Source: a virus. From it: a stretch of 40,171 bases of DNA. Every line of letters starts with the position of its first letter. The stretch's first letter is position 1. Made by a program: the position numbers and the translations under genes. Shown here one piece after another: positions 2,469 to 31,959 of this stretch. The notes beneath the pieces were generated by a model. It made no database searches. It saw only the letters and a list, made by a program, of their open reading frames with translations, and was not told the DNA's origin. Where the stretch lies: UHGV virus genome UHGV-0154679; one strand, written 5' to 3'.

Positions 2469-2843
2469 ATGATGACACTAAAACATTTTCTTGACCGCCC
2501 ATTATGGGCGGCAGCCGCAGGCTATGACTTTAATTATATGGATTGCATGTCTTGTACTGCCAATGCATACGACCATTCGTTCATCCTGCTGTTTAATTCT
2601 TTAAGAATATTGCCGGAAACAGAAGTTGGAGAGCTTCATTTATGGCTATTGGGCTTTATCGCGGCTGTCGTTGGTATTGCTGTATGGCCTTTTATTTTCT
2701 GGCTGGTGGCTGTTGTAGTGTGGTTTAAGTGCAAGACATACCGGAAAAAGTATTTCTTAGGTGATGGAATGACTGATATTGCCAAAATGAACATTGAAGA
2801 ATGGACTAAGGAATGTGAAAAGAAATGGCGCAAAAAGAAATGA
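2469..2843 (+). CDS. Hypothetical membrane protein (124 aa)
   Basis: Hydrophobic core LWLLGFIAAVVGIAVWPFIFWLVAVVVWF. Confidence 0.4.
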   Translation: MMTLKHFLDRPLWAAAAGYDFNYMDCMSCTANAYDHSFILLFNSLRILPETEVGELHLWLLGFIAAVVGIAVWPFIFWLVAVVVWFKCKTYRKKYFLGDGMTDIAKMNIEEWTKECEKKWRKKK

Positions 2844-3469
2844 CCAGAATCACTGAAGAGCGCATATCAGAGATTATTTCCCGTATCGAAATGTATGGTC
2901 ACGGTGCTGGATATACGGCAGATGAAGTATTGGAAATAGCCCAGCAGATGCTGGCCTTGAGACAAAAAGAGCAACATGAAAGTAATACGTGTAGATTGAA
3001 TTTTGAGCATTGGCTGGAACAGCAACGCGGAAAAATCGATGTGGACTGTGGTTGTGTGTCCACTGAAACATTCATGCACTGGCTGTGGGTAGCTTACGAG
3101 GCTGGCAACTATCCGGATATTCCGGATAGTTCGGTGCCAGCACCAGGAAAGGGCGTCACCGGTGAACGTATCCGAATTAAGCCGCATGTTTATCGCGAAC
3201 TGGTTAACCGTCTCCACGATACAGCGATCAAGTGTGCTGGCACCCAGCAATTACGAGAAAGAATTAGCCGTGTTTTGGGCGACGTTATTACACCAGATCA
3301 TCATAAACAAGCCGAGAAAAGTGGCCTGGAAAGGTGTCACCTTGAGGCGGCATTAAACATTAAGCCGGGGCATACGCTTGGCATTATTGATGCACTATTG
3401 GTTCATAAGATGGCCAGGGCTTTATTGCCGCTGGTGGATGCTGGCGATACAAGCGAGGGTGAAGTATGA
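2825..3469 (+). CDS. Hypothetical protein (214 aa)
   Basis: Long ORF in the same-strand gene array; start uncertain (ATG 2825 or 2840). Confidence 0.5.
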   Translation: MAQKEMTRITEERISEIISRIEMYGHGAGYTADEVLEIAQQMLALRQKEQHESNTCRLNFEHWLEQQRGKIDVDCGCVSTETFMHWLWVAYEAGNYPDIPDSSVPAPGKGVTGERIRIKPHVYRELVNRLHDTAIKCAGTQQLRERISRVLGDVITPDHHKQAEKSGLERCHLEAALNIKPGHTLGIIDALLVHKMARALLPLVDAGDTSEGEV

Positions 3470-8637: not shown

Positions 8638-9831
8638 GTGACCTGGGACGATCACAAGAAGAATTTTGCTCGCCTGGCGCGAGATGGTGGTTACACCATC
8701 GCACAATATGCCGCCGAGTTTAATCTCAACCCAAACACCGCACGTCGTTATCTCCGTGCATTCAAAGAAGACACCAGAACAGCGGACAGCCGTAAGCCAA
8801 ATAAGCCTGTCAGGAAACCACTAAAAAGCATGATCATTGATCACGCTAATGATCAACGTGCAGGTGATCACATTGTGGCTGAAATGGCTGAAAAACAAAG
8901 AGTTAATGCTGTTGTCAGTGCCGCAGTCGAGAACGCTAAGCGCCAAAATAAGCGCATAAATGATCGTTCTGATGATCATGACGTGATCACCCGCGCCCAC
9001 CGTACCTTACGTGATCGCCTGGAACGCGACACCCTGGATGATGATGGTGAACGCTTTGAATTCGAAGCTGGCGATTACCTGATAGATAACGTTGAAGCGC
9101 GGAAGGCCGCGCGCGCTATGTTGCGTCGGTCCGGGGCCGATGTTCTGGAAACCACTCTTCTGGAAAAGTCTCTTTCTCATCTCCTTATGCTGGAGAACGC
9201 CAGGGATACGTGTATTCGCCTGGTGCAGGAAATGCGCGATCAGCAAAAAGACGATGATGAAGGTACTCCGCCTGAATACCGTATCGCGAGCATGCTAAAC
9301 AGCTGTTCCGCGCAGATAAGCAGCCTGATCAACACCATTTACAGCATCCGGAATAACTATCGAAAAGAAAGCCGGGAGGCGGAAAAGCACGCTTTGTCTA
9401 TGGGGCAAGCTGGCATTGTTAAGCTGGCATACGAACGAAAGCGTGAAAATAACTGGTCAGTGCTGGAAGCAGCTGAATTCATTGAGGCGCATGGCGGGAA
9501 AGTGCCGCCCCTGATGCTGGAGCAAATCAAAGCCGATCTGCGTGCTCCTAAGACCAATACCGATGATGAGGAAAGGCAAACAGCCGTCGGTGGCCCTTCT
9601 CTTGAAGATCTGGACAAAGTTGCGCGAGAACGGGCCGCCAACCGCCGCGCCGATGCCGCATTGTGGATTGAGCAGCGTAGGGAAGAAATCGCCGATATCG
9701 TTGATACAGGCGGTTATGGAGATGTTGATACTGAAGGTGTATCAAACGACCCATGGCTGGAACAAGACCTGGACGAAGACGAGGAGGAAGACGAAGAAGT
9801 TACCCGCAAGCTATACGGGGATGATGATTAA
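8638..9831 (+). CDS. pacA: PacA, terminase small (pac-recognition) subunit (397 aa)
   Basis: GTG start with AAAGGAAG SD; 397 aa; contains the hexamer pac site in its 5' part; acidic C-terminus; TAATG coupling to pacB. Confidence 0.92.
8831..8989 (+). promoter_or_regulatory. pac packaging site: 4 + 3 TGATCA/G hexamers with Dam GATC sites
   Basis: Hexamers at 8831, 8838, 8850, 8865 (left cluster) and 8961 (TGATCG), 8973, 8984 (right cluster). Confidence 0.85.
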
Positions 9832-11315
9832 TGGCCAGAAGTTGCGTAACGGACCCACGTTGGCGCGAGCTGGTGGCGCTATATCGTTATGACTGGATTG
9901 CGGCCGCTGATGTTTTGTTCGGCAAAACACCTACCTGGCAGCAGGATCTGATTATTGAGTCTGTGCAGGAACAGGGTAGCAAGACATCTGTTTCGTCTGG
10001 TCACGGTACCGGGAAATCAGACATGACTTCTATCATGATCATGTTGTTCATAATCATGTATCCCGGTGCCCGCGCCATTATCGTTGCGAACAAAATTCAG
10101 CAGGTAATGACCGGTATATTCAAGTACATCAAGATAAACTGGGCTACGGCCACCAGCCGTTTTCCATGGCTTGCTGATTATTTTGTTCTGACAGAAACCG
10201 CTTTCTATGAGGTTACTGGTAAAGGTGTATGGACTGTAGTACCGAAGGGCTTTCGTCTGGGAAGTGAAGAAGCTCTCGCCGGTGAACACGCAGATCATCT
10301 TCTGTATATTATCGATGAAGCCTCCGGTGTCAGTGATAGAGCTTTCGGTATCATCACCGGTGCTCTTACCGGACAGGATAACCGCATCTTATTACTGTCA
10401 CAGCCTACACGCCCAAGCGGCTATTTCTACGATACACACCATAAACTGGCCAAGCGTCCTGGTAACCCTGATGGCGTTTATACGGCGATCACGCTTAACA
10501 GTGAGGAATCACCGCTGGTAACGCCAGCATTTATCAAAATGAAGCTGGCGGAGTACGGCGGGCGTGATAACCCTATGTACATGATTAAGGTACGCGGCCT
10601 ATTCCCTAAATCACAGGATGGCTTCCTTCTTGGACGTGATGAGGTTGAACGTGCAACGCGGCGGAAAGTCAAGATTGCAAAAGGATGGGGCTGGCTTGCA
10701 TGTGTGGACGTTGCTGGTGGTACGGGACGGGATAAGTCCGTTATCAATATCATGATGGTGTCCGGCCAGCGAAATAAACGCCGTGTAATCAACTATCGAA
10801 TGCTGGAATACACAGACGTTACAGAAACGCAGCTTGCCGCCAAAATTTTCGCAGAATGTAATCCTGAGCGATTCCCAAATATCACCATAGCGATAGACGG
10901 CGATGGCCTGGGTAAAGCAACGGCGGATCTGATGTACGAGTATTATGGTATTACCGTACAGCGTATACGCTGGGGTAAAAAGATGCATAGCCGTGAAGAT
11001 AAGAGCCTGTACTTTGATAAACGTGCTTATGCCAACGTTCAAGCCGCAGAGGCCGTAAAATCTGGTCGTATGAGACTGGATAAGGGTAATGAAACTATTG
11101 AGGAAGCGTCGAAAATCCCTGTAGGGATTAACTCCGCAGGTCAATGGAAGGTGATGAGTAAGGAGGATATGAAGAAAAAACTCAACCTGCACTCACCAGA
11201 CCATTGGGATACATATTGTTTCGCTATGCTGGCGGATTATGTTCCCCAGGATGAAGTGCTTAGCATCGAAGACGAAGCGCAGGTTGATGAAGCTCTGGCA
11301 TGGCTTAATGAATAA
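9831..11315 (+). CDS. pacB: PacB, terminase large subunit (494 aa)
   Basis: Walker A GHGTGKS and Walker [11 protein letters not shown]; 494 aa; coupled to pacA. Confidence 0.93.
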
Positions 11316-12749: not shown

Positions 12750-12766
12750 TAATTTATTAGAGCAAT
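12750..12766 (-). promoter_or_regulatory. C1 operator-like 17-mer (minus orientation; ATTGCTCTAATAAATTA)
   Basis: 16/17 match to the recalled consensus; in the immC control region upstream of coi/c1. Confidence 0.65.
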
Positions 12767-14393: not shown

Positions 14394-14410
14394 ATTGCTC
14401 TAATTATTTG
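14394..14410 (+). promoter_or_regulatory. C1 operator-like 17-mer ATTGCTCTAATTATTTG downstream of cre
   Basis: Operator consensus match between cre and the next ORF. Confidence 0.55.
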
Positions 14411-14869: not shown

Positions 14870-14899
14870 ATTGCTCTAATTGATTGCTATAATTAAGCC
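14870..14899 (+). promoter_or_regulatory. Two overlapping C1 operator-like sites with embedded TATAAT (ref promoter)
   Basis: ATTGCTCTAATTGATTG (14870-14886) and ATTGCTATAATTAAGCC (14883-14899); TATAAT at 14888-14893. Confidence 0.6.
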
Positions 14900-29016: not shown

Positions 29017-29033
29017 ATTGCTCTAATTAATTT
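29017..29033 (+). promoter_or_regulatory. C1 operator-like 17-mer ATTGCTCTAATTAATTT in the lyz/ssb divergent region
   Basis: 15/17 match to the recalled consensus, 20 nt upstream of the ssb start. Confidence 0.6.
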
Positions 29034-29052: not shown

Positions 29053-29541
29053 GTGGCACAACGCGGTGTAAACAAAGTCATCCTGATTGGTACCCTGGGG
29101 CAAGACCCGGAGATCAGGTATATACCAAATGGCGGCGCGGTCGGAAGACTCAGCATCGCAACGAATGAATCATGGCGCGACAAGCAAACGGGCCAACAGA
29201 AAGAGCAAACAGAATGGCATAAAGTCGTTTTGTTCGGAAAACTTGCTGAAATTGCGAGTGAGTATTTACGAAAAGGTTCTCAGGTCTACATCGAAGGGAA
29301 ACTTAAAACCCGTAAGTGGACAGATGACGCCGGTGTAGAACGTTACACGACGGAAATTATCGTCAGCCAGGGCGGCACCATGCAAATGATCGGCGCTCGC
29401 CGCGACGATTCACAGTCCTCAAATGGCTGGGGGCAGTCAAACCAACCTCAAAACCACCAGCAATACAGCGGTGGTGGCAAACCTCAGAGCAGCGCCAATA
29501 ACGAACCTCCAATGGACTTTGAAGACGATATTCCGTTTTAG
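29053..29541 (+). CDS. ssb: Single-stranded DNA-binding protein (162 aa)
   Basis: Strong similarity to E. coli SSB ([27 protein letters not shown]...[29 protein letters not shown]) with Gly/Gln-rich tail ending DDIPF; GTG start. Confidence 0.95.
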
Positions 29542-29743
29542 AGTTTATGAGTAAAAAACGACTGAAAGAAAAGCGGTGGTCCAAACGCCAACAAAAGCAC
29601 GAACTCGCTAAAAAACGCCAAAGTTGGCAATGGAACGCGTTTTTAACGAACAGAACACCCCGAGATATTGCTTTCGCTGGTGGGAAAACATTCCTGACCC
29701 ACCTGAAGGCGCAATACATCAGTTTTTAAGCAGAGAAAAGACT

Positions 29744-30532
29744 ATGGCAGCACAAAATACTAAAACAATTCAATACCGCCTGCGTAATGGCCAGAGTGTC
29801 GAAGTGACCATCAATAATGATGGTGTACCTGGCGAAAAGGTTTCTATCTCCGATCTGGCTATCGAAAAAACCATCATGTGCCACCTTGGCTTTACTGAAG
29901 AAGTGAGCAAAAAGCATGGTGTAGCAATCTGGAGCGCAATGGATACTGGTATGCGCAAATTCATTACTGCTCGTACCCCAGGGATGACCATGATGGACCT
30001 CATGCAGATTGCGCCGCTGTTTGAATGTGAGCCTTTAGATGTATTCAGCAATCCAGCTATCTGCCAGCAGTTATATGGTGAGATGAAACTCGCGGTTACC
30101 CCCATTGTGCTGCATGAAGGATCGCTTGCTGGCGTGTGGAAAGTGGAGCGTATTTCAAGCTACATGCCTTTCCATGTCAACGGCGTAATCACTGGTGAAA
30201 ATCAACCTGTTTCCGTTATAAAGTCAGACCTCAAGCGCGCAATTCTTGAAGCAAGTTGTCGAGTTGTCGGCCTGGGCAAACAGTCTTATGTTTCCTTCCC
30301 GGCTGGCCCTGAAGGCCCGGCAGAAATTCTGATTATGGATGCCGATCTGCTATGGCAAATACAGTTTCTGATTGGCAAAAGCATCATCCGCGCTGAAGAA
30401 CTCGATCAGTACATTACCTGCACGATGACGGATGAAGTCAAAAGTGTGGCTATAGCCAATGCCCGGAACCTATGTCGTGCTGCATTAACAGAACTGCAAG
30501 AAAACACCACGGAAGAGGTGGAAAGTGATTAA
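29744..30532 (+). CDS. Hypothetical protein (262 aa), upstream partner of the PacB paralogue
   Basis: ATG 29744 (the track ORF extends to 29624, a TTG start); stop overlaps the GTG start of the next gene. Confidence 0.5.
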   Translation: MAAQNTKTIQYRLRNGQSVEVTINNDGVPGEKVSISDLAIEKTIMCHLGFTEEVSKKHGVAIWSAMDTGMRKFITARTPGMTMMDLMQIAPLFECEPLDVFSNPAICQQLYGEMKLAVTPIVLHEGSLAGVWKVERISSYMPFHVNGVITGENQPVSVIKSDLKRAILEASCRVVGLGKQSYVSFPAGPEGPAEILIMDADLLWQIQFLIGKSIIRAEELDQYITCTMTDEVKSVAIANARNLCRAALTELQENTTEEVESD

Positions 30533-31619
30533 TCGTATACAGAATGAATCTGCCTGGTTAGCACTGATAGAACGGTATAAAGACAATTGGGAACTGGCAG
30601 CAAAAGAGTTGCTTGATATTGAGTTAACACCTCATCAAGCAAAAATTATTAACGCGATAAAGAACACCGGAGCCAAAGTCACTGCCACCACACCACATGG
30701 TATTGGGGAAACCTCTATTGTGGCAGTGATTAGCATCCTGCAAACAATACTGTATTCGTGTTCCCGTACAGTGGTTGTTTCTCCTGCGATTAACGATAGT
30801 CGAAAAACAATAATTGACTATATGTTCCGTTATTGGGAGCGAGTTACCCAAAAACACCCTTTTCTTGGCAATTATTTCAGAATACACCCTGACAAAGGGT
30901 TGGTGCATATCAGTGAAACATGGGGATGCGTCTATATAACCTATTGTCTGAATAACGAAGAGTCTCTGGCTGGTTTTACTGGACCGCACGATCTTTTCAT
31001 CGTTATTAACTCGGCGGAAATCAGCGATCGCGCTCATGCAGTGATAACTGGCAATTTAACCAATTATGACTCGCGCCTGCTGTTGCTGTCGAAACCATCG
31101 GAACGCGAGAAAGGGTACTTTTATGATTCGCATCACCGGTTGGCCCATAGTAAAAACAATCCTGCTGGTTTTTTCACGGCGATAACTCTAAACACAGAGG
31201 ATTCACCTCTCGTTTCTGAAGCATATCTTGAATTCAAAGCCAAAGAGTTTGGTGGGCGCAATAGCGATGAATATCGCCGATTGATCTTGGGGAAATTTCC
31301 CGGGATTCGGGAGTTGATGGAAAAGTCATCTGTTCCCCGTAATATGCACTTCACAATGACTGACGGTAGTAAATGGGTAGTGCCTACGATCGTGATCGCC
31401 AAACACCATGCGAAACATCACGCTCAAAAACACAACTCCAGCACATTAGACTGGCTGAAGGCCTATACAATACCGTTATTCTCGGCAAACCATAACGCTA
31501 TAGCTGAATGGGCTAAACAAATCCCCTGGCAGGATGTGGCTGAAGAGGCATTTGTCGAAAAACCACCAAGAGATTTGCACGAGCACTGTTGGCTGACATC
31601 AGAAAAAAGCTTCTCGTGA
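30525..31619 (+). CDS. PacB-paralogous protein: terminase ATPase-like domain with degenerate Walker motifs (364 aa)
   Basis: Collinear with PacB residues about 10-260 in this window (DNWELAAKEL vs [10 protein letters not shown]; RLLLLSKPSEREKGYFYDSHHRLA vs [23 protein letters not shown]; FFTAITLNTEDSPLV vs [15 protein letters not shown]); Walker A is HGIGETS (Lys to Glu) and Walker B is FIVINSAE (DE to NS); no nuclease-domain counterpart. Confidence 0.7.
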   Translation: MINRIQNESAWLALIERYKDNWELAAKELLDIELTPHQAKIINAIKNTGAKVTATTPHGIGETSIVAVISILQTILYSCSRTVVVSPAINDSRKTIIDYMFRYWERVTQKHPFLGNYFRIHPDKGLVHISETWGCVYITYCLNNEESLAGFTGPHDLFIVINSAEISDRAHAVITGNLTNYDSRLLLLSKPSEREKGYFYDSHHRLAHSKNNPAGFFTAITLNTEDSPLVSEAYLEFKAKEFGGRNSDEYRRLILGKFPGIRELMEKSSVPRNMHFTMTDGSKWVVPTIVIAKHHAKHHAQKHNSSTLDWLKAYTIPLFSANHNAIAEWAKQIPWQDVAEEAFVEKPPRDLHEHCWLTSEKSFS

Positions 31620-31650: not shown

Positions 31651-31959
31651 TCAATATACGATCTGGTCTACATGATCACCAAAATCATCGTCGTCGTCCT
31701 CATCGCCACCATCTACTGCTGGCCAATCAACAAACCAGCCAGCGTAAAGATGCAGCGTTCGGAGAACATCACTTGCGGGAGCATCAAGGGTGTTAACGAA
31801 TCCCATATAGCTATTGGGATTTGCCCCAGCTATGGCTTCAGCGATCATGTCCTCGGTAATGTCACCGGAGATAATGCTTAAACGCCCGGAAACTTCTTCA
31901 TTATCATCAAATTCGATAATGGCATCTCCGCCTAATGGCGCTGCGATTTTAATCTGCAT
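31651..31959 (-). CDS. Hypothetical acidic protein at the distal end of the darA operon (102 aa)
   Basis: Minus-strand ORF overlapping the ddrB stop; Asp-rich C-terminus. Confidence 0.4.
   Translation of the reverse strand: MQIKIAAPLGGDAIIEFDDNEEVSGRLSIISGDITEDMIAEAIAGANPNSYMGFVNTLDAPASDVLRTLHLYAGWFVDWPAVDGGDEDDDDDFGDHVDQIVY

Follow-up and report, generated by a model that had tools for sequence, protein, structure and literature searches.

A non-catalytic paralogue of the PacB large terminase in an accessory slot of P1-like phage-plasmids

The P1-like phage-plasmid UHGV-0154679 encodes an open reading frame (ORF) of 364 amino acids (aa), here termed pseudo-PacB, that is almost certainly a non-catalytic paralogue of the N-terminal part of PacB, the large terminase subunit (TerL) encoded by the same element. 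The window, that is the whole stretch of DNA analysed, comprises 40,171 nucleotides of a P1-like phage-plasmid; between positions 29500 and 32000 it is 99.96% identical, with a single gap, to phage vB_EcoM-813R1 and 96.5% identical to two records named 'Punavirus P1'. An initial annotation, made from the letters alone, had described the ORF as a catalytically degenerate terminase paralogue, and the reading frame is present as called, with a GTG start that is preceded by a Shine-Dalgarno sequence (GAGGTGG, 30515-30521). The features that carry the argument are the following.

30525-31619, plus strand: pseudo-PacB gene, 364 aa, GTG start and TAA stop, a PacB-type ATPase-fold domain followed by a small C-terminal domain.
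30525-31310, plus strand: N-terminal domain, residues 1-262, a large-terminase ATPase fold without the catalytic motifs, recognised by identity, AlphaFold and Foldseek.
30690-30713, plus strand: Walker A remnant TPHGIGET, with Glu62 (30708-30710, GAA) at the position of the P-loop Lys, followed by Thr63.
30993-31019, plus strand: Walker B remnant LFIVINSAE, with Ile161-Asn162 (31005-31010) in place of Asp-Glu.
31080-31109, plus strand: motif III region LLLSKPSERE, which in real PacB-type terminases reads LLLSQPT-R.
31311-31616, plus strand: residues 263-364, which make up the C-terminal domain; this phage domain of about 90-100 aa is mobile and stands in place of the nuclease domain.
31398-31433, plus strand: His/Lys-rich helix AKHHAKHHAQKH inside the C-terminal domain.
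9831-11315, plus strand: PacB (494 aa), the real large terminase, of whose family the paralogue is an offshoot; GHGTGKS and IIDEASG are intact, and a nuclease half is present.
8638-9831, plus strand: PacA, which is the small terminase or pac-recognition subunit and may be a partner that the paralogue binds.

The similarity to PacB is highly significant and collinear. BLASTP aligned residues 11-272 of pseudo-PacB with residues 11-274 of the window's own PacB (94 identities over 266 positions, 35%, E=9e-55), which bears out the relationship that had been proposed, although the shared part amounts to the N-terminal 53-55% of PacB and not to the N-terminal two-thirds. The TerL profile phrog_2 matches pseudo-PacB with E=3.5e-9, and PHROG 5902, a family that has already been clustered with no function or description attached to it, matches over the full length (E=2.8e-186); sequence searches of the PDB gave no match. 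In an AlphaFold2 model built from a 98-sequence alignment, which has a mean predicted local distance difference test score (pLDDT) of 87 and a predicted template modelling score (pTM) of 0.80, residues 1-262 reach pLDDT values of 93-98 (about 97), and the top Foldseek matches to this model in the PDB are Sf6 gp2, the P74-26 TerL ATPase (template modelling score 0.64-0.68 on the target) and T4 gp17. With PacB and these terminases, pseudo-PacB has in common a homologous N-terminal ATPase fold of the additional strand catalytic glutamate (ASCE) type, together with Q38, the P-loop glycines and the post-motif-III and lid motifs, but it lacks the Walker A Lys and Ser, the Walker B Asp-Glu and the RNase H-like nuclease, and its motif III is altered. 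Beyond about residue 262 of pseudo-PacB and residue 274 of PacB, BLASTP detected no similarity to the PacB nuclease half. The structure prediction that had been suggested as a check points the same way, with a TerL-type ATPase fold in residues 1-262 and an unrelated small domain where the nuclease domain would be.

The loss of the catalytic motifs was followed across the family by a profile search of 1.84 billion representative proteins, which returned 1210 relatives, the best 150 of which were inspected for their motif states. Among these 150, nearly all TerL-type matches that span both motifs retain G-x-G-x-G-K-[ST] and [DE]-E, whereas a small degenerate set does not. Column by column, this set has jointly lost Walker A (S-G-H-G-T-G-K-S), Walker B (D-E-A-S-G) and motif III (SQPT-R), the last of which is the coupling motif of TerL enzymes and whose Q190, T192 and R194, conserved in real PacBs, are not kept across the degenerate clade. 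What the set retains is the Q motif (Q38), the P-loop glycines, EE..AG, G-FY-SHH, EDSPLV and the YGG...YR...G-FP lid region. The position of the P-loop Lys is occupied by R, H, M, T, I or C in diverged relatives within the clade, and in some a Lys is shifted by one position (GIGHKS, GIGQKT, GVGTKT); the Walker B Glu is kept in one relative and the Asp-Glu pair in none. The Lys-to-Glu exchange of the window's copy (GHGTGKS against HGIGETS) is as first described, and so is the loss of the acidic Walker B pair; only the assignment of that loss to Asn-Ser does not hold, since the gapless alignment places Ile161-Asn162 opposite Asp-Glu. Because it has neither the Lys nor an acidic Walker B residue, pseudo-PacB of the window is, to judge by its sequence, very unlikely to hydrolyse ATP and unlikely to bind Mg-ATP in the canonical manner. 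The view that this terminase look-alike probably neither hydrolyses ATP nor cuts DNA is thus supported by the loss of Walker A, Walker B, the motif III region and the nuclease domain. The idea that the pocket has been remodelled into a conserved nucleotide sponge was considered and is disfavoured, as the clade puts no constraint on the P-loop position, where E, R, H, M, T, I and C all occur.

That the Walker residues might prove intact after correction of a frame or sequence error, leaving a second working terminase, is a negligible prospect even though Glu62 (GAA) is one base from Lys (AAA), because the GIGETS and VINSAE/VINAAE states recur in the IMG/VR copies checked and degenerate motifs are found in relatives 37-53% identical, 119 plasmid records cover 80% or more of the gene with 94-100% identity, the diverged relatives carry other residues for the Lys and have no Asp-Glu pair, and the nuclease domain is absent in every frame.

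In place of the nuclease, the C-terminal 102 residues form a small alpha/beta domain unrelated to the PacB nuclease half. This domain (residues 263-364) is matched by PHROG 17928 at the C-terminal end of that family; there is no convincing match among solved structures and none in Pfam, and the domain is known solely in uncharacterised phage proteins. The His/Lys-rich stretch pointed out in the initial annotation lies within it, and the richness in His is confined to the enterobacterial lineage, relatives having ARNRAEHYANEF and similar sequences at this place; the helix is a lineage-specific decoration. The domain also occurs as stand-alone proteins of 85-143 aa, and it closes a 471-aa protein of Xanthomonas CP2-like phages that is encoded inside a recombinase-exonuclease-SSB module (SSB, a protein that binds single-stranded DNA). 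In Xanthomonas phage Tenjo (locus L020, 1900-3315; loci compared with the window are given by such handles), the 471-aa protein consists of a weakly DUF1351-like N-terminus, a highly charged, coiled-coil-like region of about 250 residues rich in Ala, Glu, Arg and Gln, and the same C-terminal domain; the label 'DUF820' in the Tenjo record has no support from Pfam.

The degenerate proteins form a lineage of their own. A neighbour-joining (NJ) tree was computed with 200 bootstraps from the ATPase-domain columns of cluster representatives, and in this distance tree, in which long-branch attraction is possible for the degenerate clade, the 11 degenerate representatives are monophyletic in 196 of 200 replicates and nested among PacB-type terminases. 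Mean identity is 39% within the clade, 36% between the clade and real PacBs, and 58% among the real PacBs; judged by the first and last of these values, the degenerate copies evolve faster. Pseudo-PacB is 35% identical to the PacB of its own genome and 35-37% identical to foreign PacBs, and as it is no closer to the former than to the latter, we read its origin as an old duplication without concerted evolution. Most members of the clade consist of the N-terminal domain alone (244-268 aa) and are complete genes where the contigs allow this to be checked; one of 230 aa, P0069, may be partial. Another member, P0010 (L015, 10001-11335), bears a different C-terminal extension of 185 aa, for which no family match was obtained. 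A further ATPase-domain-only terminase protein, P0044 (L024, 644-1450), belongs to a different TerL lineage and degenerated independently. Contexts were classified as P1-like by a C1-type repressor, a Cre-like integrase or RepL, a test that needs a contig of sufficient length and leaves out the short contigs of P0008, P0047 and P0044. All clade contexts on contigs long enough for this are P1-like elements, and an intact pacA-pacB pair is found alongside the paralogue in the window, L009, L011, L017/18, L048-L064 and L086/87.

The gene is under purifying selection, and it is therefore to be regarded as a non-catalytic look-alike and not as a pseudogene. Pairwise ratios of nonsynonymous to synonymous substitution (dN/dS, Nei-Gojobori) between the window's copy and the MH422554, Escherichia albertii and Salmonella copies range from 0.09 to 0.30, with values of 0-0.12 for the C-terminal part, and the ORF is uninterrupted in 39 of 39 IMG/VR copies that are 37-100% identical. 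A functionless relic, that is a pacB fragment left by duplication and in decay since its active site was lost, would likewise have lost every catalytic motif, would be dispensable, as the gene is for P1, and would suffer occasional disruptions, of which two natural cases were seen (an ISEc60 insertion in pEA13_2 and a 1-base frameshift in ON470617). Such decay is nevertheless highly improbable given the dN/dS values, the intact copies, a full-length ORF and fold that are maintained in homologues down to about 30-37% identity, and a conserved synteny and presumed translational coupling with the upstream gene isaA; the relic reading is strongly disfavoured, and pseudo-PacB is selectively maintained. 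As to the two disruptions themselves, in E. albertii pEA13_2 (L007, 3780-5090) ISEc60 splits the gene exactly between the ATPase-like and the C-terminal domains, and the halves are annotated as two hypothetical proteins. In the vB_EcoM-813R1 record ON470617.2 (L003, 4524-4533, corresponding to about 31520-31535 of the window) a 1-base indel frameshifts the C-terminal domain, so that the annotated coding sequence measures 1071 bases; the indel may be a true mutation or may stem from an error of sequencing.

Pseudo-PacB is an accessory gene, present in about one in five P1-like plasmids. Among the plasmid records of PLSDB it is found in 120 (106 from Escherichia, 9 from Salmonella, 4 from Klebsiella and 1 from Shigella), as against 617 with pacB, and it also occurs in 100 of 5426 complete E. 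coli genomes, where the replicon that bears it is nearly always a plasmid of about 92-120 kb. A 7-kb contig labelled 'MAG: Bacillota bacterium' (L026, JAFAFU010000075.1) contains a 100% identical fragment of the gene and is most likely mis-binned. A BLASTP comparison with P1 and its relatives had been recommended at the outset; relatives do carry the paralogue, but reference P1 does not. DNA homology to P1 ends at position 30533 of the window, at the end of isaA, and restarts at 31653, in hxr, and the slot between these two genes is occupied in reference P1 by IS1 and isaB. This slot is the 'RD-2' region of difference of P1-like plasmids (PMC6906374), and CRISPR interference has shown the P1 genes within it to be non-essential, whereas pacB is essential (PMC10695390). 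IsaB of P1 (YP_006489, PHROG 30162) has the same slot as pseudo-PacB yet is unrelated to it, the best matches being E=0.084 over 57 residues with pseudo-PacB and E=19 with PacB. The possibility that isaB is a diverged or truncated form of the gene was rejected, there being no similarity to the ORF or to PacB and P1 homology stopping exactly at the isaA stop codon. In GenBank and RefSeq the product is labelled 'hypothetical protein' or, in MH422554/MH445380, 'terminase large subunit', a label that is misleading as the defining catalytic features are absent. Unlike PacB, pseudo-PacB is accessory, faster evolving and encoded outside the pacA-pacB operon: pacA and pacB lie side by side at 8638-11315, and pseudo-PacB begins at 30525, after ssb and isaA. 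Every catalytic and architectural hallmark of a working terminase is missing, and for this reason the protein should not be annotated as one.

The genes and signals around pseudo-PacB bear on when it is made and with what it may act.

29017-29033, plus strand: C1 repressor operator Ossb (Op21), upstream of ssb and identical to that of reference P1.
29053-29541, plus strand: ssb, the first gene of the array.
29744-30532, plus strand: isaA homologue, 262 aa from the ATG at 29744, in a frame open from 29624; the conserved upstream partner gene.
30515-30532, plus strand: putative translational-coupling junction, with the Shine-Dalgarno sequence GAGGTGG, the GTG at 30525 and the isaA stop at 30530-30532; the overlap is 8 bases.
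31651-31959, minus strand: hxr, which lies downstream in convergent orientation and opens the hxr-ddrB... (dar) strand.

As Ossb lies upstream of ssb, no terminator-like site was found on the plus strand between ssb and the end of the pseudo-PacB ORF, and the ORF overlaps isaA by 8 bases, we infer that ssb, isaA and the ORF would be expressed from an early, C1-repressed transcript with translational coupling. Three further 17-base matches to the C1 operator, each with 2 mismatches, are located at 12750-12766 on the minus strand and at 14394-14410 and 14870-14886 on the plus strand (chance expectation 0.01 per window), and presumably represent other C1-controlled promoters of the immunity region. 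On the far side of the gene, the hxr-ddrB strand of the P1 dar anti-restriction region begins 31 bases downstream of the ORF and runs towards it.

The association with isaA is close and is accompanied by genes resembling Tad2 (Thoeris anti-defence 2, PF11195). IsaA precedes the gene in all 21 E. coli-type loci; in 4 of the 21 a full Tad2-like gene encoding 281 aa stands between ssb and isaA, and in the others with upstream sequence it is reduced to a leader of about 57-65 residues. Phage SJ46 has the full 281-aa gene and is without the pseudo-PacB ORF. In a lineage about 50% identical, represented by 17 IMG/VR loci of which 16 have upstream DNA, IsaA is immediately upstream in 16 of 16 and a Tad2-like gene precedes IsaA in 15 of 16. 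Locus L009, in which IsaA is 46% and the ORF 47% identical, repeats the overlap architecture of the window at another genome position, downstream of pacAB-c1-cre-dUTPase, and there too a Tad2-like gene comes first. Tad2-like genes directly upstream of isaA were recorded in many P1-like elements, namely L004 (SJ46, 2572-3417), L009 (8515-9201), L028, L030, L035, L044 and L048-L064. The cassette of Tad2-like gene, isaA and, in some elements, pseudo-PacB is conserved in two lineages and at two different genome positions.

Several observations concern isaA itself. Over its first 57 residues, reference-P1 IsaA (320 aa) shares 86% identity with the N-terminus of the Tad2-like protein of 281 aa encoded after ssb in SJ46, and this leader after ssb lies at 29571-29743 in the window and at 2572-2742 in both L001 and L004, where the same leader is joined to different downstream modules. 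The start of isaA is ambiguous (TTG at 29624 or ATG at 29744) because the leader of the window continues in frame into the gene. IsaA is widely conserved among P1-like elements: numerous IMG/VR loci encode homologues that are 24-48% identical, and these frequently lie about 6 kb downstream of pacB. A PDB search with the IsaA profile gave no match. The notion that IsaA is a paralogue of PacA, which would make the pair a duplicated 'pseudo-pacAB' operon, was dropped as no alignment was obtained, and a relationship between IsaA and the Ref-like nuclease encoded upstream of the L011 paralogue was rejected on comparison.

Since pseudo-PacB can presumably neither drive packaging nor cut DNA, it probably acts purely by binding, and an accessory function of this binding-only kind is very likely. 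Which partner is bound can be addressed more tentatively. The reading that is favoured, if short of an even chance, is a counter-defence or conflict role, for which the Tad2-like cassette, the neighbouring dar strand, the location in a variable slot, the fast evolution and the early timing suggested above all speak. Of the roles floated in the initial annotation, namely packaging regulator, decoy and defence or anti-defence factor, the genomic context leans towards conflict or anti-defence, with packaging still to be reckoned with. Under such a scheme pseudo-PacB, the final cistron of the ssb-isaA array and coupled to IsaA, would be produced soon after C1 derepression and would serve as an inert mimic of terminase in conflicts between phage and host or between phages; ahead of the real terminase it might engage a factor able to recognise the ATPase fold of terminase, such as the immune receptors Avs1-3 or Upx, with IsaA and/or the C-terminal domain supplying a non-activating or blocking function. 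Avs1-3 and Upx are enterobacterial sensors of terminase; the terminase ATPase domain alone suffices for Avs2 and Upx, and Avs2 reads terminase-bound ATP (PMC13601566). In the same study T4 vs.8 and Ksap1/Ksap2 triggered Avs2, and the function of such terminase-like accessory proteins was left open, with anti-defence suggested (PMC13601566). A specific version, in which pseudo-PacB together with IsaA would early on fill Avs1-3, Upx or an unknown sensor and prevent its oligomerisation, the loss of the ATP site and the added C-terminal domain having turned a trigger into an inhibitor, is unlikely as it stands.

A number of points weigh against a conflict role. Ligand binding normally activates sensors of the STAND class (signal transduction ATPases with numerous domains), so that a simple decoy would be harmful unless oligomerisation were blocked, and the loss of the ATP site should weaken recognition by Avs2 and Avs3, which read that site. 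The anti-Avs proteins of the EVADES preprint are unrelated to pseudo-PacB; no family of PADLOC-DB v2 was matched at E<=1 by pseudo-PacB, IsaA or Hxr, and Pfam and NCBIfam gave no match for pseudo-PacB or IsaA. The members of the clade that consist of the N-terminal domain alone are not adjacent to Tad2-like genes, the C-terminal domain is found elsewhere in replication or recombination modules, and proximity to Tad2-like and dar genes counts for little as evidence. Finally, all classifiable contexts are P1-like, exactly as would be expected if pseudo-PacB acted on PacA, PacB or the portal.

This last point leads to the strongest rival, a somewhat unlikely one, in which the dead ATPase domain keeps the surfaces that meet PacA, PacB subunits or the portal and modulates packaging or interferes with it; pseudo-PacB may then be a regulator of pac cleavage or motor assembly, or a dominant-negative poison of a competing P1-like pacase. 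The retention of the fold, of the PacB-family N-terminal helices and of G-x-FY-x-SHH, EDSPLV and YGG...YR...G-FP fits such a role, as do the nesting of the clade among PacB-type terminases in P1-like elements only, so far as contexts could be classified, and the presence of a cognate pacA-pacB both in the window and in three other lineages; the nuclease has been swapped for different modules or for nothing on one and the same N-terminal domain, as expected of a targeting module. Yet the gene lies about 19 kb from pacAB, in the C1-controlled array headed by ssb and outside the packaging operon, about 80% of P1-like plasmids and reference P1 package normally without it, and it is no closer to its own PacB (35%) than to foreign PacBs (35-37%); control by C1 also speaks against an exclusion function expressed from the prophage. 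Proteins of satellites are known to bind helper terminase subunits, for example Ppi of Staphylococcus aureus pathogenicity islands (SaPIs) and Rpp of phage-inducible chromosomal islands (PICIs), which are not known to be terminase homologues and target the small subunit. They offer a possible working analogy in their non-enzymatic binding to the packaging machinery; pseudo-PacB differs from them in being a terminase-derived pseudoenzyme encoded by the phage itself.

It is less probable still, and on present indications quite unlikely, that pseudo-PacB is an early factor of DNA metabolism, its inactive ASCE domain and C-terminal domain binding DNA or SSB, Ban/DnaB or a recombinase, an activity that would help or protect replicating phage DNA. 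The gene follows ssb in the window. On a distant P1-like contig (L065, 8583-11062), a full-length homologue 37% identical that includes the C-terminal domain comes directly after a DnaB/Ban-like helicase gene, and in Cronobacter phage JK004 (L021, 2354-4291) the C-terminal domain alone is encoded two genes after DnaB. To these may be added the fusion of the domain to a DUF1351 and coiled-coil protein in the Xanthomonas CP2-like recombination module, and the L011 paralogue, of the N-terminal domain only, whose gene overlaps that of a Ref-like RecA-dependent nuclease. The same neighbourhoods may, however, simply be those of early genes; neighbours vary by lineage (radical SAM, LysM, Tad2-like), and the isoelectric point of pseudo-PacB is near neutral, at 7.0.

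Among described proteins the nearest analogue is T4 vs.8, with Ksap1/Ksap2 as its functional counterparts; it resembles pseudo-PacB in being a lineage-restricted accessory protein similar to the ATPase domain only of its phage's own terminase, but in a comparison made by description only vs.8 keeps Walker A and Walker B (PMC13601566), which pseudo-PacB does not, and it is without the extra C-terminal domain that pseudo-PacB bears. With the Walker motifs lost, an ATP-dependent contact with Avs2 would be missing in pseudo-PacB. Literature searches returned no account of this family, of any terminase paralogue in P1-like phages that has lost its catalytic function, or of an anti-defence protein that mimics terminase, and the presence of IS1 and isaB in the corresponding slot of reference P1 may explain why none of the family was found.

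Phage P1 is a classical model, and its backbone is that of a phage-plasmid family very common in Enterobacteriaceae. In this family the large terminase, the most conserved enzyme of phages, has given rise to a stable lineage of dead, fast-evolving copies that are maintained beside the working enzyme and fitted with exchangeable C-terminal modules, which makes the pseudo-PacB clade a test case for pseudoenzyme evolution in viruses. In practical terms, the erroneous label 'terminase large subunit' could mislead terminase-based classification of phages. The clade also bears on the role of terminase-like accessory proteins such as T4 vs.8 and on whether phages are able to counter terminase-sensing receptors; if pseudo-PacB does blind such a receptor, it would be, as far as could be found, the first anti-defence protein that mimics the conserved viral pattern itself.

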